Origin: an uncultured Muribaculaceae bacterium | GTDB taxonomy: Bacteria > Bacillota_I > Bacilli_A > RF39 > UBA660 | DNA length: 43,337 nucleotides | Direction of reading: 5' to 3' | Assembly: GCA_964626795.1 (NCBI GenBank) | Contig: CAZVIQ010000002.1 | Coordinates: 1-43,337, forward strand | Shown: piece after piece, positions 4,357-37,648 of the stretch | How positions within the stretch are numbered: the first letter of the stretch is position 1 | How the letters are laid out: each line of letters starts with the position of its first letter | Translations under genes and position numbers: made by a program | The notes under the pieces: generated by a model | The model's input: only the letters and a program-made list of their open reading frames with translations | Told to the model about the DNA's origin: nothing | Database searches by the model: none

Positions 4357-6261
4357 ATGAAAAAAATATTTTTTCTTTTAATTCTTATATTTTTTCCTCT
4401 TATTACCTTAAATGCGGTTCCAAGTGATGAAGTTGACTATAGTGTAGAAGGTATATATATTAATGGTCAGATAGAAATAGCTGGAGCTGTTCATTTTAGA
4501 GAAATAATTAAGATAAGCGGAACTTATAATGGTTATATAAGAGATTTAATATATAAAAGAGATGCTCCAAGTTTTAATGGAGATGCGGATAGTTTTTACA
4601 ACAGCGATATTTATAATGGTGATGGTGTTATTATAAATAAAGTGGGAATACTTAATGTAGAAGATTTTAGTTTTGAAAATTTTGATGAAAACCATATAAA
4701 TGAAAATGTAGATTTCTTTAAAAACGAATCAAATAATACTTACGAAATATCTTCTATTAATAATGGTAAAAGCATTAAAATGTATAATGAAACAATAAGA
4801 GGAGAAACTTATTTTTATATTGACTATACAGTTACTAATCTAATAGTAGAACATAATGATTGTGCAGAATTTTACTATAATATAATTGGAGACAGTTTTG
4901 ATGATTATATTAATGAAGTCAAGGCAGTAGTATATCTTCCAGAAGCAGATCCGGATAATTTAAGAATATGGGCACATGGACCATTAAATGGAGAAGCTTA
5001 TATCATAGAAGGTGGATATGGAGGAATATTAAAAATAAATGGTTTAAATTCTTTTACTTCGATTGATTTAAGAATGACATACTCAAAAGAACTTTTTCCA
5101 ATAAATATAAACGAACATAAAAAATCTGGTGTCGATGCTATTCCATTCATTCTGGAAGCTGAAAATAAAAGAGCAGAGGAAGCAAATATACAAAGAAGAG
5201 CTGCTAAAATAACGGTTTATACCTCTGTAATATCTGGAATTCTATACATAATGGGTATAGTAGCTTTAACTTTCTATGCTTATATTAAACATGATAAAGA
5301 ATATAAAAGTGAATTTAAAAATAGATATAACAGAGAATTTATAGAAGATTACGATGTAGAAGTTGTTGACTATCTAATGAAAAAGAATATTTCTTCAGAT
5401 GCGTTTTCTGCAAGTATTTTAAATTTAATTTATAAGAAAAAAATTAGTGTAGAAGAAATAAAAGAGAAGAAAAAAGATTACCTTTTTACTTTAATAAGTA
5501 AAGAAGGAATAAGTGAAAGTGAAACAAAAATAATAGAATTATTATTTGATAAAATAGGTTCAGATAATAAAGTTAAAATGAGTAAAATTAAAAAAGTTTC
5601 AAAAGAAGTATATAGCACTAATAAAAATGTTATTTATGATAGTTTTAATGCTTGGAAAAATATAGTTTTTAAGGAAAGTCAGAAACAAGAATTTTTCACT
5701 AAAAATTTGAAAGTTAAATTATTATTAGGTTTTTATGGAATTTTAGGTTTTCTTATATTTGCTCTTTTAGTGAATGTGGGATTAGAATCATTTGGAATAA
5801 TTTTATTAGTTATATCGATTATATATTTACTGTATATTATTCTATTTACTAAAAGAACTGTTAAAGGTAATGAACATTATATTAAGTGGAAGGCTTTTAA
5901 AAGATTTTTAGAAGACTTTGGAAGATTTAAAGAAAAAGAACTACCTGAAATAGTTCTATGGGAAAGATATCTAGTATATGCAACGGTTCTTGGAGTTGCA
6001 GATAAAGTAAGCAAAGCTATGAAAGTTAAATTTGAAGAAATGAATATAAATAATAATACATTTGATAATACTTTCTATCATATATATTTATTTAACAGCA
6101 TAAATAATGATATTTCAAGAAATATAAACAGTTCAATTCAAAGTTCAATTTCAACTGTAAATATTGCTAATTCTAAAACATCTTCTGGAAGTGGCTTTGG
6201 AGGAGGATTTTCTTCCGGTGGAGGCTTCGGTGGAGGTGGCGGAGGAGGCAGAGGTTTCTAA
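4357..6261 (+). CDS. DUF2207-like membrane protein with Gly-rich C-terminal tail
   Basis: 634 aa. Signal peptide, large extracytoplasmic N-domain, TM segments near aa 285-310 and 455-500, and a C-terminal SGSGFGGGFSSGGGFGGGGGGGRGF tail. It sits in the classic position next to lemA. Confidence 0.7.
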   Translation: MKKIFFLLILIFFPLITLNAVPSDEVDYSVEGIYINGQIEIAGAVHFREIIKISGTYNGYIRDLIYKRDAPSFNGDADSFYNSDIYNGDGVIINKVGILNVEDFSFENFDENHINENVDFFKNESNNTYEISSINNGKSIKMYNETIRGETYFYIDYTVTNLIVEHNDCAEFYYNIIGDSFDDYINEVKAVVYLPEADPDNLRIWAHGPLNGEAYIIEGGYGGILKINGLNSFTSIDLRMTYSKELFPININEHKKSGVDAIPFILEAENKRAEEANIQRRAAKITVYTSVISGILYIMGIVALTFYAYIKHDKEYKSEFKNRYNREFIEDYDVEVVDYLMKKNISSDAFSASILNLIYKKKISVEEIKEKKKDYLFTLISKEGISESETKIIELLFDKIGSDNKVKMSKIKKVSKEVYSTNKNVIYDSFNAWKNIVFKESQKQEFFTKNLKVKLLLGFYGILGFLIFALLVNVGLESFGIILLVISIIYLLYIILFTKRTVKGNEHYIKWKAFKRFLEDFGRFKEKELPEIVLWERYLVYATVLGVADKVSKAMKVKFEEMNINNNTFDNTFYHIYLFNSINNDISRNINSSIQSSISTVNIANSKTSSGSGFGGGFSSGGGFGGGGGGGRGF

Positions 6262-17851: not shown

Positions 17852-17989
17852 AATTCATCGGTTAACCTAAACTACATCAACGTGGGCAGTGACGTGCATC
17901 TGGCAGTTTCTCTTAAATCTTGTATTACTGTAACTGGAGGAACCGGTATTAAAGAAAATCCTTATATAATATCTAATTCTACTTGTTAA
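17852..17989 (+). pseudogene. 3' remnant of a paralogue of the 472-aa protein encoded at 25366-26784
   Basis: An open frame of 45 codons without a start codon or RBS. It translates as ...LNYINVGSDVHLAVSLKSCITVTGGTGIKENPYIISNSTC*. By hand alignment, 16 of the last 28 residues are identical to ...SVSLKSCIVVTSGDGTLSSPYILSDKAC* (26698-26781). The DNA string CAGTTTCTCTTAAATC is shared. Confidence 0.7.
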
Positions 17990-24011: not shown

Positions 24012-25292
24012 ATGTTTATCGATGAAGTAATAATTAAAGTAAAAGCTGGAAATGGAGGAGATGGATGTTCTTCTTTTAGGCATGAAAAATATGTTGAGCT
24101 TGGTGGTCCAGATGGTGGTAACGGTGGAAAAGGTGGAAACATTATATTTAAAGCAGATAAAGGTCTTAAAACTCTTATTGATTTAAAATATATGAAAACT
24201 GTTAAAGCAGATAAAGGTGGCAATGGAAGTGGTAATGATAAAACTGGTAGGAATGCAGAAGATACTTTTATAAAAGTACCAGTGGGAACTACCATTAAAG
24301 ATTCGGAAACTGGACTTATTATATGTGATCTTATAGAAGATAACGAAGAGCATATTATAGCAAAAGGTGGAAAAGGTGGTAAAGGTAATGCTGCTTTTAA
24401 AACAAATAAAAATAAAGCACCTACTATAAGTGAGTACGGTGAAGAAGGTGAAGAAAAAACTTTACAGTGTGAACTTAAACTTTTAGCAGATGTAGGACTT
24501 GTAGGATTTCCTTCAGTTGGTAAAAGTAGTTTAATAAGTATTATAAGTGCATCCAAACCAAAAATTGCTGATTATCATTTTACTACACTTTCTCCTAATT
24601 TAGGAGTTGTAAAAGTTGAAGATTATAGTTTTGTAGTTGCTGATCTTCCAGGACTTATTGAAGGTGCTTCAGAAGGTATAGGACTAGGTGATAGATTTTT
24701 AAAACATACACTTAGAACTAAAGTTATTTGTCATTTAATAGATATGAGTTCTTTAGAAGGAAGAAATCCAATTGAAGATTATAAGATAATTAGAAGAGAA
24801 CTAGAAAGTTATAGTGATAAACTTGCTAAAAAGACTGAAATAATTGTTGCAAATAAAATGGATTTACCAAATTCAAAAGATAATTTAGAATTATTTAAAA
24901 AAGAGTTTCCAGATTTAACTGTAATACCAATAAGTGCGGTGACTAAAGAAAATATTAATACACTTCTTTATAAAATTAAAGAAACACTTATAAAAGAAGA
25001 AGAAACTTCAGTTTATGAAGAAAATGAATTTGAAGATTATGTACTTTATGAATTTAAAAATAATAAGCCTTACACTATTATCAAAGAAGGTAATAGTTGG
25101 CTATTAGAAGGTGATGAATTACACAAACTACTTAAAAAAACCAGATTTAATAGTGATGAAGCGACTCTTAGATTTGCTAAAAAACTAAAAACTATGGGAA
25201 TTGATGATGAACTTCGCAAACTTGGCGCTAAAGAAGGAGACACAGTTAAAATACTTGATAAGGAATTTGAATATGAAGATAGATTTTATTAG
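24012..25292 (+). CDS. obg: GTPase Obg/CgtA
   Basis: MFIDEVIIKVKAGNGGDGCSSFRHEKY Gly-rich Obg fold, G-domain motifs GFPSVGKSS / DLPG / NKMD, and a C-terminal extension domain. Confidence 0.95.
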   Translation: MFIDEVIIKVKAGNGGDGCSSFRHEKYVELGGPDGGNGGKGGNIIFKADKGLKTLIDLKYMKTVKADKGGNGSGNDKTGRNAEDTFIKVPVGTTIKDSETGLIICDLIEDNEEHIIAKGGKGGKGNAAFKTNKNKAPTISEYGEEGEEKTLQCELKLLADVGLVGFPSVGKSSLISIISASKPKIADYHFTTLSPNLGVVKVEDYSFVVADLPGLIEGASEGIGLGDRFLKHTLRTKVICHLIDMSSLEGRNPIEDYKIIRRELESYSDKLAKKTEIIVANKMDLPNSKDNLELFKKEFPDLTVIPISAVTKENINTLLYKIKETLIKEEETSVYEENEFEDYVLYEFKNNKPYTIIKEGNSWLLEGDELHKLLKKTRFNSDEATLRFAKKLKTMGIDDELRKLGAKEGDTVKILDKEFEYEDRFY

Positions 25293-25310
25293 AATCTAAT
25301 TTAAAAAATC

Positions 25311-25339
25311 TTGAATAATGTTTCAATAAATGGTAAAAT
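25311..25339 (+). promoter_or_regulatory. Candidate promoter of the 472-aa gene
   Basis: TTGAAT (25311-25316), a 17-nt spacer, then an extended -10 TGgTAAAAT (25331-25339). Confidence 0.5.
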
Positions 25340-25365
25340 CCCTTTAAGGATAGAGTGATTTTATT

Positions 25366-26784
25366 ATGAATAAGAAAGCTATTATAATTAGTATATTAAT
25401 TACTTTACTATTAATGAGTTCATTAATAGTTTTTAGATTTGATAATAAAAAAGAAATATATATAACAAAATCCAGTGAAATAAAGAATACTAAACTAAGC
25501 ATGATAAAAATAGAAGAAGGAATATCAACAGTAATAAAAGCAGTACCGACAAGTGGCAACTGGTATATGGATTATAATTGTGAAAATGACAATACAAAAT
25601 TATTCTGGGATGATGACAGCAAAAAAATCTTGGTAAAAGAAGCTGGAGATACAGAATGCACAGTAATATTTGAAAAGACAAAATCAGCAATAAATATAGT
25701 ATCAATGTATGTAGATGATGTATATGTAGGAGAGCTAGAAGAAAGTAAATCATATAGGTTATTATCATATGAATGTGCAAACGGAGAAACAGTAATGTGG
25801 AACGGAATAGAAAGTGAAGTTTCTGTAAAACCACTAAGACAGAACACACATTGTAAATTATATTTTGAAGAAGCACCATATTTATATAATAAAATACTAT
25901 TAGACAATGTTGTACAAAGTGATTCAAGTATAAACTTCGCTAATTCATCATCAGACACAAATGGAAAAGGATTATACTATACAGAAAATGAACTAACATA
26001 TGGAGAGGATAATACAAGAATCTACTATTTTAGAGGAAGAGTAGAAAACAACTGGGCAAGCTTTGGAGGATACTTATGGAGAATTGTGCGTACAACAAGT
26101 GAAAATGGAATAAAGTTAGTATATTCAGGAAATGGACAGGGAACTACTAGTGGACATATAAAATCAGTTGTGTTTAACACAACTAATAATCGATATCGTA
26201 TGGGATATACTTATAACTTAACTGGTTACAGTGGAAATCAAACAGATAGTTTAGTTAAAACAGAAATAGATAGTTGGTATGAAAGTAATTTAAGTTCTTA
26301 TTCAAATTATTTAAGTGAAACTGCTGTATATTGCTCTGATAGAGATGGTTCTTCATTTCCTGTGAGAGTTCGACTTTATGCAAATAAAAGACCATCATTT
26401 GCATGTCCGAATGCAAATGAAAGTAGATATACAGCAAGTATAACAACAGGAAATGGATACTTACAAAAACCAATTGCCTTACTAACTGCAGATGAGGTAC
26501 ATTATTCAGGAGTCATTTATGGAACAAAAAGTTTAAATTCATATATTATGGATAATGTAACAGAGATATCTAATTGGTGGCTTATATCACCTTTTAGTCA
26601 AGATGTTAGAGGGGGAGGCTGGTGGTGTCTTTTCTCAGTACGTCCTGGCGGAGATTTATACGATGATGCTCATGTAAATTCTGGTGCTGTTCGTCCCTCA
26701 GTTTCTCTTAAATCATGTATAGTGGTAACAAGTGGAGATGGAACTTTATCTAGTCCATATATATTAAGTGATAAAGCTTGCTAG
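25366..26784 (+). CDS. Membrane-anchored extracytoplasmic protein of unknown function, with two Cys-bracketed modules and a conserved C-terminal domain
   Basis: 472 aa with an N-terminal TM anchor. Two modules of about 40 aa (aa 65-104 and 128-168) follow the pattern Y.C.N...W....VK....C..FE. Later motifs are NNWASFGGYLWRIVRTTSENGIKLVY, WWLISPFS and AVRPSVSLKSCIVVTSGDGTLSSPYIL. Confidence 0.6.
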   Translation: MNKKAIIISILITLLLMSSLIVFRFDNKKEIYITKSSEIKNTKLSMIKIEEGISTVIKAVPTSGNWYMDYNCENDNTKLFWDDDSKKILVKEAGDTECTVIFEKTKSAINIVSMYVDDVYVGELEESKSYRLLSYECANGETVMWNGIESEVSVKPLRQNTHCKLYFEEAPYLYNKILLDNVVQSDSSINFANSSSDTNGKGLYYTENELTYGEDNTRIYYFRGRVENNWASFGGYLWRIVRTTSENGIKLVYSGNGQGTTSGHIKSVVFNTTNNRYRMGYTYNLTGYSGNQTDSLVKTEIDSWYESNLSSYSNYLSETAVYCSDRDGSSFPVRVRLYANKRPSFACPNANESRYTASITTGNGYLQKPIALLTADEVHYSGVIYGTKSLNSYIMDNVTEISNWWLISPFSQDVRGGGWWCLFSVRPGGDLYDDAHVNSGAVRPSVSLKSCIVVTSGDGTLSSPYILSDKAC

Positions 26785-26792
26785 AAATACAT

Positions 26793-26826
26793 AACTCTAT
26801 ATTTTACTTTTAAATATAGAGTTTTT
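26793..26826 (+). terminator. Rho-independent terminator
   Basis: Perfect 11-bp stem AACTCTATATT (26793-26803) / AATATAGAGTT (26813-26823) with a 9-nt loop and a T-run. Confidence 0.7.
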
Positions 26827-26860
26827 ATATTATAATAAAATAAGCAGTAAAGGAGTATCT

Positions 26861-32179: not shown

Positions 32180-32300
32180 AATCCACCTCCTCATGAATAC
32201 TTTTAAAGTTTATCAAAATTCCTATTAAAAATCAAGTTTTTCTTAAAGAAATAACATAATTTCTACATAATTTGTGATTTTCATAATATATACTTTATAT

Positions 32301-33275
32301 ATGAAAAGAAGATTTAAAACAAAACATAAATTTAACAGATTTATAAAAACAGGTTGTTATCTGTATGTTTTTTATGTATTAGTAAGTATAGTGTTTAACG
32401 GAAAAGTAATAAACATTAAAAACTTCTTATTAAATAGTTCATTAAATAATATGATAAATGAGAAAAGTTATTTATTAAAACTTGTGGATGTTAATATAAC
32501 AACTCCTAAAAATATTGTATATGCTTCTTTTAATAAAGTAATAGGTAAAGAGGATCTTTCAGTGTTTAAAAACGAGCATGATGACTATGACAGTTATGAA
32601 AAAAATAATTCTGTATATGTGGAAGATATAAATGAAACAGTAGTGTCTAATCCAGTTGTTTATATTTATAATACACATCAGCTTGAAGAATATAGTTCAG
32701 AACTTTTAAATAATTATAATATTAAACCAAATGTAATGATTGCTTCTTATACATTAAAAGAAAAACTTGTAAATTTAGGAGTAAATACTATAGTTGAAAA
32801 AAACAATATAAAAGAGTATTTAAATAGTAACGGACTTACTTATGATTACAGTTACAGAGCTTCAAGATATTTTCTAAATGAAGCTATTAAAAATAATTCA
32901 GGATTAAGATATTTTATAGATATACATAGAGATTCTGCTCCATTAAATGTAACACTTTTAAAAACAGAAGATAAAGAATATGCAAGAATACTTTTTGTAG
33001 TTGGTATGGATAATAAAAAATGCGAGGAAAATTTAAAAATTGTTACCGATATGAATAATAGAATGGAAGAAAAACTTAAAGGTATATCAAGAGGAATAAT
33101 GAAAAAAGGCGGGAAAGGTGGAAATAATTATATTTTTAATCAGGATATAAGCACTAATTCAGTTTTAATAGAAATAGGCGCAGTAGAAAACAATATTGAA
33201 CAAGTTTATAATACGTTGGAAATTCTTGCTGAAGTAATTTCAGAAATAGTAAAGGGAGGTGCATATGGAACCTAA
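32301..33275 (+). CDS. spoIIP: Stage II sporulation protein P (SpoIIP)
   Basis: N-terminal TM segment, VYIYNTHQLEEY, IDIHRDS, and a late ILFVVG...IEIG region typical of SpoIIP. The start is ATG 32301 or the track's GTG 32274. Confidence 0.8.
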   Translation: MKRRFKTKHKFNRFIKTGCYLYVFYVLVSIVFNGKVINIKNFLLNSSLNNMINEKSYLLKLVDVNITTPKNIVYASFNKVIGKEDLSVFKNEHDDYDSYEKNNSVYVEDINETVVSNPVVYIYNTHQLEEYSSELLNNYNIKPNVMIASYTLKEKLVNLGVNTIVEKNNIKEYLNSNGLTYDYSYRASRYFLNEAIKNNSGLRYFIDIHRDSAPLNVTLLKTEDKEYARILFVVGMDNKKCEENLKIVTDMNNRMEEKLKGISRGIMKKGGKGGNNYIFNQDISTNSVLIEIGAVENNIEQVYNTLEILAEVISEIVKGGAYGT

Positions 33276-36664: not shown

Positions 36665-37648
36665 ATGAGATATGGAAAGAAAGTAATTATAATTTTATTA
36701 TCATTTTTTATGTTTAATTTCAATCTATTTGCTTACTCTGAAAAAGTTATTCCTGGTGGGGATAATATTGGAATAACTCTTAATAGTGAAGGATTAATAG
36801 TAGTTGGATTTTATAAGGTAAATGATAAGTTTATTGCTAAAGAAACACTTAAAATAGGAGATGTTATTTTAAAAGTGGAAGGAAATGACATACATTCTAT
36901 AAATGATCTTTCATCTTTAATAAGTGAAAATATAGTTGATGATGCAGTTAGTATTGAAGTAAAAAGAAATAATAAAATAATTGAGTTAAAGCTTAGTTTA
37001 ATCTATGAAGAAGATGTTTATAAAACAGGTCTATATATTAAAGATAAAGTTACTGGTATTGGAACTCTAACCTTTGTTGATCCTGTAACAAGAATATATG
37101 GAGCTCTTGGACATGAAATAATTCTTAGTGATACTGGTAAGAGAGTAGAGATTAAAAATGGGAGTATATTCTCTAGTTATGTAAATAGTATTGATAGAAG
37201 TACAAATGGAACTGTAGGAAGTAAGAATGCAACTATACTATATAATAATGAAATAGGTAGCGTTGTTAAAAATACTGAATTTGGTATATATGGAACTTAT
37301 TCTGGAAATATAAATAATAGCAGTGTGCTAGAAGTTAGTACATTTGATGAAATAGAAAGTGGACCTGCTAAAATAAGAACTATTATAAATGGTGAATTAA
37401 TAAAAGAATATAATATATATATTATAGATAAAGATAAAAATAAACTAAATACTACAAAAGCTATTTTATTTGAGATAGCGGATGAATCACTCATTGAAAG
37501 TACTGGAGGTATTGTACAAGGTATGAGCGGAAGTCCAATCATACAGAACAATAAAATAATAGGTGCAGTAACTAACGTAGTTATTGATGATGTAAAAAGG
37601 GGATATGGAATATTTATAAGGACTATGCTCGAAGAAGGAGAAAGGTAA
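36665..37648 (+). CDS. spoIVB: SpoIVB peptidase (S55) with PDZ domain
   Basis: Signal/TM segment, PDZ segment LKIGDVILKVEGNDIHSINDL, GTLTFVDP...GALGHEI, and the catalytic Ser motif GMSGSPIIQNNKIIGAVT. Confidence 0.85.
   Translation: MRYGKKVIIILLSFFMFNFNLFAYSEKVIPGGDNIGITLNSEGLIVVGFYKVNDKFIAKETLKIGDVILKVEGNDIHSINDLSSLISENIVDDAVSIEVKRNNKIIELKLSLIYEEDVYKTGLYIKDKVTGIGTLTFVDPVTRIYGALGHEIILSDTGKRVEIKNGSIFSSYVNSIDRSTNGTVGSKNATILYNNEIGSVVKNTEFGIYGTYSGNINNSSVLEVSTFDEIESGPAKIRTIINGELIKEYNIYIIDKDKNKLNTTKAILFEIADESLIESTGGIVQGMSGSPIIQNNKIIGAVTNVVIDDVKRGYGIFIRTMLEEGER

Follow-up and report, generated by a model that had tools for sequence, protein, structure and literature searches.

The 43,337-nt window analysed here lies on contig CAZVIQ010000002.1 of an uncultured gut bacterium, whose genome (G000) comprises 904,802 bp in 81 contigs, with 26.5% GC and an estimated completeness of 92%; unless a contig or locus is named, coordinates are positions in this window. 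The subject of the analysis is the gene at 25366-26784, located between obg and yqeG, which encodes a protein of 472 amino acids, P0001. Pfam and NCBIfam gave no domain name for this protein, and none of the public records seen for P0001 and its close homologues carries a name. The comparisons described below suggest that P0001 is a variable, membrane-anchored surface protein with a predicted lectin-like head, and that its gene is diversified by recombination in a family in which other members are served by a diversity-generating retroelement (DGR).

The gene has signals for its own transcription (Table 1). The promoter sequence matches the consensus at 9 of 12 positions, which is weak when taken alone, and it is corroborated by the recurrence of the same box, TTGAAT/TTGACC-17-TGnTAAAAT, 5′ of the paralogues on contigs C13, C7 and C67, of the second paralogue in locus L047, and of the genes of homologues P0003 and P0004, together with a family-specific 5′ leader, TAGGATAGAGTGATTTT. 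On contigs C67, C33 and C64 this 17-mer, with at most 1-2 mismatches, precedes the starts of family genes by 2-3 nt, and it was also found in L047 and on contigs C62 and C8, in the latter two with no intact start after it. Box and leader are shared by members with different N-terminal carriers (window 25310-25370; L047:5346-5407; C33, C64, C67, C62 and C8), which suggests either that these genes are regulated in common or that entire transcription units were duplicated. Downstream of the gene, a perfect stem at 26793-26823 folds with a free energy of -11.5 kcal/mol (z = -4.16), and 0 of 200 shuffled sequences folded as well; this terminator was missed by the consensus scan because its stem has fewer than three G-C pairs.

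Table 1. Features of the P0001 gene and its flanks, and DNA identity to the allele in locus L047 (60-nt windows, window coordinates).
Feature	Positions	Strand	Basis or remark
Promoter TTGAAT - 17 nt - TAAAAT with extended -10 TG	25311..25339	+	consensus scan and recurrence at paralogues
Family-specific 5′ leader with ribosome-binding element AAGGATAGAGTGATTTT, 3 nt before ATG	25346..25362	+	recurrence
Coding sequence of P0001, 472 amino acids, variable surface protein	25366..26784	+	open reading frame call and homologue searches
N-terminal transmembrane helix, residues 5-23	25378..25434	+	hydropathy and AlphaFold2
Stalk module 1, ~residues 44-104, beta-rich, bracketed by C72/C98	25495..25677	+	module self-alignment, AlphaFold2, alignment to C53 repeat protein
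Stalk module 2, ~residues 105-169, bracketed by C137/C163	25678..25872	+	module self-alignment, alignment to C53 repeat protein
Polymorphic site G>T, codon 168 GAA->TAA (E168*), truncates between stalk and head	25867	+	locus L049 compared with window
Head domain, residues 170-472, extended DUF6273-type, predicted C-type-lectin-like and ligand-binding	25873..26781	+	AlphaFold2, BFVD, PHROG, invariant columns
Hypervariable loop equivalent to the variable region of DGR targets, residues 408-447 (SPFSQDVRGGGWWCLFSVRPGGDLYDDAHVNSGAVRPSVS), no current DGR target	26587..26706	+	composition, entropy, template repeat alignment
Intrinsic terminator: 12-bp stem, 7-nt loop, T-run	26793..26830	+	folding compared with shuffles
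62-85% identity to L047 allele	25326-25664
95-100% identity to L047 allele	25665-25904		mostly overlapped by stalk module 2
52-80% identity to L047 allele	25905-26609
35% identity to L047 allele, lowest	26610-26669		loop
80-88% identity to L047 allele	26670-26785
98-100% identity to L047	from 26786

The N-terminal helix is the sole strongly hydrophobic segment of P0001 (KD19 = 2.82), and the AlphaFold2 (AF2) model contains a helix at residues 3-27. No conserved AxA site was seen in the alignment of P0001 orthologues, and the transmembrane (TM) helix is probably an uncleaved signal-anchor. The P0001 sequence has no LPXTG motif, lipobox, prepilin motif or second TM segment; the sortase-anchor test found no LPXTG, and the C-terminal end reads ...SDKAC. 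The protein contains nine cysteines. The two Cys-bracketed modules that follow the helix share 28% identity over 39 amino acids (E = 4e-4 in a single comparison), and this likeness appears real but weak. Within the head, the alignments showed that C323 and C347 are invariant in the family and that C451 and C472 are kept in the subfamily, and it is likely that the protein is exposed at the cell surface with its cysteines paired in disulfides. The C-terminal motifs NNWASFGGYLWRIVRTT, WWLISP and AVRPSVSLKSC are conserved family-wide.

These data agree in most points with the initial annotation, which had been made from the letters of the window and from a list of its open reading frames. It had proposed a 472-residue reading frame with an N-terminal TM anchor, two similar Cys-bracketed modules and terminal motif blocks including the WWLISPFS region, all of which were recovered, the module likeness being weak. 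Its promoter (25311-25339) was supported by the box and leader that recur at paralogues, and its strong terminator (26793-26826) by the folding comparison (z = -4.2). It had further described the gene as inserted between obg and yqeG, which is correct for the window, but these genes do not form a conserved pair, as obg was found within 1.5 kb upstream of yqeG in 0 of 15 relatives; an insertion that broke a conserved obg-yqeG pair was hence rejected.

To identify the head domain, it was compared with sequence profiles and with predicted structures. The Pfam profile PF19789 did not match P0001 even at E <= 1, nor did it match the head alone (cut-off 23.5 bits). The same profile scored P0003, which is 65% identical to P0001, at 30.4 bits against the gathering threshold of 23.5, and P0002 and P0004 at 19.5 and 21.6 bits, respectively; 18 of the 57 family members matched at E <= 0.01. 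When the alignment of these 57 sequences was used as deep input for AF2, the head (residues 170-472, 303 amino acids) was modelled with a predicted local distance difference test (pLDDT) score of 95.8 and a predicted TM-score (pTM) of 0.94. A Foldseek search of this model against BFVD gave 8 matches at E <= 1e-3, which extended over 250-290 columns and several of which are named DUF6273 or receptor-binding protein; these phage matches had E values from 2.6e-6 to 3.6e-4, probabilities of 0.97-1.0 and TM-scores of 0.30-0.44. The head also matched the PHROG profile phrog_9958 (E = 3.6e-5). The full-length model had a pLDDT of 70.7 and gave weak lectin matches only in the fold search, and a sequence search of the PDB with P0001 returned only chance antibody matches. 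The literature describes DUF6273 as a domain of C-type-lectin-like character that is targeted by DGRs and that serves in receptor binding by phages (PMC10743442). The initial annotation had linked the C-terminal block to DUF6273-like extracellular proteins of Bacillota, and this link is supported by the Pfam match of P0003, by the 18 matching members and by the fold matches to phage DUF6273 proteins. Its more general view of P0001 as an extracellular, membrane-anchored protein was also supported. We conclude that P0001 is, according to these models, a membrane-anchored protein with a DUF6273-type lectin-like head.

The head belongs to a large family. A word-index search with P0001 gave 499 matches, and an exhaustive search gave 4669 clusters (50% identity) at E <= 1e-3, in some of which the C-terminal region is present in as many as 11 tandem copies; elsewhere, the giant proteins P0123 (3528 amino acids), P0125 (4905 amino acids) and P0126 (2129 amino acids) carry 6-11 tandem heads of the P0001 type. 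G000 itself has at least 10 substantial paralogues, many of them at contig ends, together with dead fragments on contigs C40, C49, C30, C70 and C16 and at 17876-17986 of the window. The family was found in 7 of 31 relatives, in which it is often expanded, to 28 or 34 matches per ~1-Mb genome. Only residues ~170-472, that is, the head, are shared widely across homologues, and they are attached to different N-terminal parts. One such part is a TasA/camelysin-like N-domain, in some cases accompanied by Big_2-like repeats. P0006 and P0008 pass the cut-off of the hidden Markov model (HMM) of Pfam Peptidase_M73, and P0005 and paralogues C31a, C13 and C38 (...YAFF... in the paralogues) were assigned here by the likeness of their N-terminal sequences. 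A type IV prepilin N-terminus is carried by 7 of the 57 representatives, including P0067 and P0122. The TM helix with a B-repeat-like stalk of Cys-bracketed modules is a third carrier for the DUF6273-type head, and it is present in P0001, P0002-4, P0007 and paralogues C20a, C20b and C67; for P0001 the Pfam search gave no match to a Peptidase_M73-like N-domain.

Within the group with the TM helix the stalk is more conserved than the head. The stalk of P0001 is 74-85% identical to those of P0002-4, while the corresponding heads are 64-66% identical, and heads on other scaffolds are 57-61% identical to that of P0001. A word-index search with the stalk alone retrieved P0002-4 only. A repeat protein on contig C53 has two adjacent modules to which the P0001 stalk aligned with the cysteines in register (E = 1e-6). 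This repeat protein matched Flg_new_2 (PF18998) below the cut-off (E = 9e-4), and the related modules of a homologue from genome G017 matched it at 25.9 bits (cut-off 23.6). The stalk modules are thus probably divergent InlB B-repeat-like (Flg_new_2) spacers.

The genome was found to contain a DGR that diversifies paralogues of P0001, which is key context absent from the initial annotation. The cassette, on contig C30, consists of the 3′ end of a target gene, an Asn-codon-rich template repeat (TR) of ~50% GC, an open reading frame (ORF) of 118 amino acids, an Avd-like ORF and a reverse transcriptase (RT), of which the RT matched PF00078 (RVT_1) with 49.2 bits and the Avd-like ORF matched NF033474 with 29.6 bits, below its cut-off. 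The TR matches three variable regions (VRs), two on contig C31 (C31a and C31b) and one on C30, which differ from it at 13, 18 and 5 adenines of the TR and at only 2, 2 and 1 other positions, respectively. Because the mismatches are restricted in this way to adenines, the three paralogues are genuine DGR targets. They sit at contig ends.

Several further observations concern this retroelement. The cassette (C30:1-2352, loci L019 and L020, outside the window) adjoins ligA, and its TR lies at ~231-345. The 118-aa ORF matches MutS domain I (PF01624, E = 2.9e-11), and such an accessory gene is unusual in a DGR. Two frames, 1205-1723 and 1717-2352, make up the RT; they meet in a poly-A run, through either a frameshift or an assembly error. 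A further copy lies on contig C49, just 5′ of ftsA (~5362-5562, minus strand). It agrees with the TR at 100% of 128 nt and runs into a remnant of a head C-terminus (ARASISLKAEVVFSGGNGSIESPYLVE), and it may represent another TR, the remnant of a VR that was not mutated or an alternative in the assembly. The presence of nrdG on C31 and of ftsA on C49 suggests that these two contigs adjoin.

The loop of P0001 that corresponds to the VR has an extreme composition. Among 21,601 genic 120-nt windows, the segment 26587-26706 is at the 0.07th percentile for A (0.175) and at the 99.86th for GC (0.467). Codons ending in a pyrimidine account for 27 of the 40 in the loop versus 184 of 432 elsewhere in the gene (p = 0.0027). 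The true VRs share this A-poor, NNY-rich composition. Variation is also greatest in the loop, both in a comparison of the four closest homologues and in the column entropy of the 57-member alignment, and the loop is the probable ligand-binding site.

The comparison of the loop with the TR did not, however, identify the gene as a DGR target in the assembled genome. The loop differs from the C30 TR at 15 of 42 non-A positions, and blastn gave no support for DGR targeting of the 25366-26784 gene either. A reverse scan of the assembly for a TR corresponding to 26581-26710, in which adenines were tolerated, found only the gene itself, while the control with a true VR found its TR. On the basis of these three tests the gene was rejected as a DGR target for the assembled genome. 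On direct reading, the VRs on C31 and C30 end in a GC-rich element, GGGGCGCGGGCC, where the P0001 gene has GGTGCTGTTCGTCC, and in the test for a 3′ element of the initiation of mutagenic homing (IMH) type the real VRs end in GGGGCGCGGGCCTCAGTTTC and the P0001 gene in a degenerate GGTGCTGTTCGTCCCTCAGTTTC. Common to the P0001 gene and the 3′ ends of the real VRs is CCTCAGTTTCTCT, just after the loop. The gene was assembled cleanly inside a 53.6-kb contig, its loop is identical in a second sample (contig L049, which has 2 differences from the window in 4038 nt), and a four-codon indel separates the gene from its orthologues. The chances are about even that the A-poor, NNY-rich loop is a fossil of past DGR mutagenesis.

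To find how the gene varies between strains, its alleles were compared. In locus L047, from a near-conspecific strain, an allele of the gene (X, encoding P0002) precedes yqeG and yqeH, whose products are identical to those of the window at 172 of 174 and 331 of 332 residues, respectively, while P0002 is only 69% identical to P0001. The identity is patchy along the gene (Table 1). In place of obg, L047 has on the opposite strand the N-terminus, with its helix-turn-helix (HTH), of an IS30-type transposase (L047:2-355, minus strand), and downstream of yqeH its gene order differs from that of the window. A recent gene conversion from an assembled paralogue was rejected, as neither the P0001 gene nor the P0002-4 alleles have a donor segment of more than ~78% identity among the assembled paralogues. 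One of the two nucleotides that distinguish L049 from the window is 25867, the site of the E168* allele. A second intergenic position, between nrdG and ftsA, is occupied by the TM-stalk member P0004 in related contigs, whereas in G000 the gene after nrdG is a TasA-like DGR target, and the TR-identical remnant precedes ftsA on another contig. These different occupants show that family members use interchangeable intergenic slots, carrying their own promoter and leader with them. As far as can be judged from the aligned alleles, the 25366-26784 gene is mosaic and varies between strains by recombination.

This mosaicism has to be distinguished from foreign origin, which the initial annotation had offered as the other explanation of an unusual base composition. 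Its spot counts of A26/T17 for 25681-25740 and A20/T23 for 24541-24600 are exact. Compared with 170-codon genic windows, the first 170 codons have A at 0.553 of third codon positions (A3, 99.4th percentile) and T at 0.271 (T3, 0.2nd percentile), while the last 170 codons have a GC content of 0.349 (97th percentile) and an A content of 0.318 (0.9th percentile), so that the heterogeneity within the gene is real. On the other hand, GC, GC3, A3, T3 and synonymous-codon likelihood of the whole gene are all within ~1.4 standard deviations (SD) of the 673 genes of the genome, and foreign origin was rejected on this basis at the whole-gene level. Orthologues P0002-4 and P0007 show the same preference for A-ending codons in their 5′ parts (A3 0.49-0.57), which is hence a trait of the subfamily and not a mark of recent transfer. 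The three antisense frames of 145, 128 and 72 codons, in which a further sign of foreign origin had been seen, exist, but they are unremarkable, since the longest antisense open frame, of 149 amino acids, is at the 94th percentile of genes, and they were rejected as a special sign. Of the two proposed explanations the mosaic gene was retained, and its evidence is the shuffling of domains over three scaffolds and the patchy identity to L047 rather than codon usage; recent foreign origin was not supported.

The window also contains Tad/pilus genes, and a link of the P0001 gene to these was considered. The resemblance of the P0001 modules to a segment of the operon pilin, noted in the initial annotation, was rejected at E = 18. 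P0001 has neither the G-F-T-L-x-E motif of a class III signal peptide nor a match to N_methyl (PF07963). The gene forms a transcription unit of its own, 7.5 kb downstream of the Tad/pilus genes and with dnaG, sigA, trmK and obg between, the closest P0001 homologues, even those fused to a pilin N-terminus, are solitary between housekeeping genes, and in the two closest Tad loci (G001 and G013) no family gene was found on the same contig at E <= 1e-10. The spacer after tadC in the window contains, at 17876-17986 (plus strand), the last ~36 codons of a destroyed family paralogue (VHLAVSLKSCITVTGGTGIKENPYIISNSTC*). In genome G017, which represents a different genus of the same taxonomic family (contig C13, locus L050, 1-4057), a family member with Cys modules of the Flg_new_2 type comes first, followed by a GFTLVE pilin (140 amino acids), tadZ and tadA. 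The suspected pilus association is favoured by the seven prepilin-bearing relatives among the 57, by the Tad-adjacent member of G017 and by the stub after tadC, but P0001 itself lacks a prepilin signal and has solitary homologues, and the pilus link of the 25366-26784 gene is indirect.

Some observations concern sporulation genes. In the window, the ORFs at 32274-33275 and 36665-37648 resemble the sporulation proteins SpoIIP and SpoIVB by eye alone. Loci L003 and L017, on contigs with family homologues, have genes with Pfam matches to SpoVA and SpoIVA, their relation to G000 not being established. A very small genome may thus still keep endospore genes.

Taken together, we consider that P0001 is a static lectin-like adhesin, diversified by recombination, in a family with DGR-served paralogues, and we give this explanation, which is built on aligned sequences and predicted structures, a probability of about 0.68. 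In the proposed mechanism, the monocistronic gene would yield a ligand-binding protein of the cell surface, most likely an adhesin, which would be anchored by the TM helix, with the Cys-bracketed beta modules as a short stalk and with the hypervariable loop presented by the head. In at least three paralogues the loop is rewritten through adenine-specific mutagenesis by the C30 DGR, with its TR, Avd and RT, and recombination between divergent alleles or paralogues would reshuffle whole segments, the P0001 gene varying by that route only. Several results weigh against this explanation. The profile searches of Pfam and NCBIfam gave no match for P0001. The fold search of the PDB with the head gave no significant match (best E = 0.27, TM-score <= 0.38), its list being dominated by C-type lectin domains below significance, and it did not retrieve the known DGR lectin folds Mtd and TvpA; because of this, the label "C-type lectin" is taken from the phage DUF6273 models and from published work. 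Modelling of the stalk modules was poor (pLDDT ~50), and they had no match to the Flg_new_2 HMM, which was reached only transitively. The 69%-identical allele comes from a metagenomic contig of 1.7x coverage, in which the context differs on both sides of X-yqeG-yqeH and which may be chimeric. The E168 nonsense allele in the second sample indicates that the gene may be dispensable or decaying. As the assembly is 92% complete and in 81 contigs, its gaps may conceal another TR, and the low A content of the loop could also result from its amino acid composition (Gly, Trp, Arg, Pro and Val) rather than from past DGR activity.

Each of the competing explanations accounts for a part of these data. 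That the gene is an active DGR target, served in trans from C30 or by a second, unassembled DGR, would agree with the same head fold and loop position as in the true targets, with a loop that is A-poor and NNY-rich like a VR, with CCTCAGTTTCTCT shared with VR 3′ ends and with a genome that is only 92% complete. It is nevertheless very unlikely in view of the 15 of 42 non-A mismatches to the TR, the four-codon indel relative to orthologues, the GC-rich end element that reads GGTGCTGTTCGTCC instead of GGGGCGCGGGCC, the lack of a TR-like window in the assembly, the identical loop in an independent sample and the absence of a contig break at the gene. Equally improbable is recent foreign DNA, either a phage receptor-binding gene or a prophage remnant. 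The head does resemble phage DUF6273 and receptor-binding proteins and a PHROG family, the family is distributed patchily (7 of 31 relatives), the 5′ A3 and T3 values are extreme and an IS30-like fragment lies beside the L047 allele, but the composition of the whole gene is ordinary (within ~1.4 SD), its 5′ bias is shared by orthologues, there are no flanking phage genes, and its promoter and leader are common to at least five chromosomal paralogues of a large resident family.

That P0001 serves the neighbouring Tad or type IV pilus as an accessory or tip adhesin, delivered to the filament or docked on it, is the least improbable of these rivals, although it too is unlikely: against the seven relatives of 57 with a prepilin N_methyl segment, the Tad-adjacent member in G017 and the dead stub after tadC stand the missing prepilin motif, the gene's own promoter and terminator, the intervening housekeeping genes, the solitary homologues, the nearest Tad loci, which have no family gene, and the insignificant pilin likeness, and at 19-34 copies per Mb some proximity is expected by chance. 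It is slightly less probable that the gene is a decaying, non-functional copy like that stub. The E168* allele of the second sample, the several dead family fragments in the genome and the loss of DGR linkage are what decay would leave, but in G000 the 472-codon frame is unbroken, none of the family's invariant residues or Cys pairs has been lost, the stalk is 74-85% identical to those of P0002-4, the head is modelled confidently, and promoter, leader and terminator are intact. A doubtful but less remote elaboration of the adhesin explanation is a system of two tiers, in which the DGR would continuously make new loops in a few live copies and recombination would archive heads, or entire cassettes from promoter to terminator, in slots such as those between obg and yqeG, nrdG and ftsA, and glyS and sepF. 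It is compatible with the A-depleted loop that lacks a TR, the shared promoter and leader, the swap at nrdG-ftsA and the allelic mosaic. If it were true, the P0001 gene would be an archived head, formerly written by the DGR and frozen as a static allele.

The recombination-diversified adhesin remains the preferred explanation, and it allows P0001, unnamed in prior records, to be annotated as an adhesin that is anchored in the membrane and has a lectin-like head of the DUF6273 type. Out of only 0.9 Mb of genome, this uncultured gut bacterium spends at least 10 genes and a retroelement on one family of variable, putative binding proteins; with so few genes in all, these probably decide attachment to host, mucus or partner cells and may govern escape from phage or antibodies. 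The DGR-served copies, the static copy and its 69%-identical allele would offer a natural experiment on diversity from a DGR versus from recombination. Individually, every component is of a known kind.

The closest known systems include the DUF6273 proteins, among them the phage "tentaclins" and the small target2 proteins of gut phages nd4 and nd12 (PMC10743442). They have the same order of motifs as P0001 (G-x-x-W-R-[IV]-[IVL], W-Y/L-N, L-L-[ST]-x-D-E, W-W-x-x-S-P and V-R-P-x-[IV]-S), the phage proteins resemble the P0001 model across the whole 300-aa head, and in both the variable loop is placed before V-R-P. P0001 differs in having a ~300-aa head with large insertions, compared with 172 positions in the DUF6273 model, and in giving no match of its own to the Pfam profile; unlike the phage proteins it is chromosomal and membrane-anchored, is no virion protein and has no link to a template repeat. 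The stalk is similar to the InlB B-repeat modules of Bacillota surface proteins, which are ~60-65 amino acids long, beta-rich and in tandem, but each P0001 module is bracketed by a conserved Cys pair, and the modules have no HMM match and a low model confidence. Modular type IV pilins, such as PilB and PilC of Streptococcus sanguinis, are like P0067 and P0122 in carrying a binding module on a filament, in some cases with DGR variation, and DGR-diversified adhesins have been described for the type V pili of Bacteroides (bioRxiv 10.1101/2024.11.15.621889). P0001 differs from both by its plain TM anchor, without a class III signal peptide or a link to a pilus operon.

Variable C-type-lectin proteins that are diversified by DGRs include Mtd of a Bordetella phage, TvpA of Treponema denticola and LdtA of Legionella. 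As in P0001, their head tolerates massive variation of a C-terminal loop, and T. denticola, like G000, has several lectin-fold paralogues beside the diversified one; P0001 differs from them in lacking VR/TR pairing and an IMH and in varying by allelic recombination. Among bacteria with small genomes, Mollicutes have the variable surface families Vlp, Vsa and the MgPa repeats, and pneumococci have PspA and PspC as antigens with mosaic alleles. Like the former, G000 devotes a large share of a tiny genome to paralogous surface proteins, and like the PspA/PspC-type mosaics, the P0001 alleles are a patchwork among otherwise near-identical strains, with the dead fragments of G000 scattered over the genome. 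Phase-variable repeats or invertible promoters were not seen in the P0001 family. It differs from the Mollicutes and PspA systems in that its fold is unrelated and that one part of it is served by a retroelement and not by recombination.

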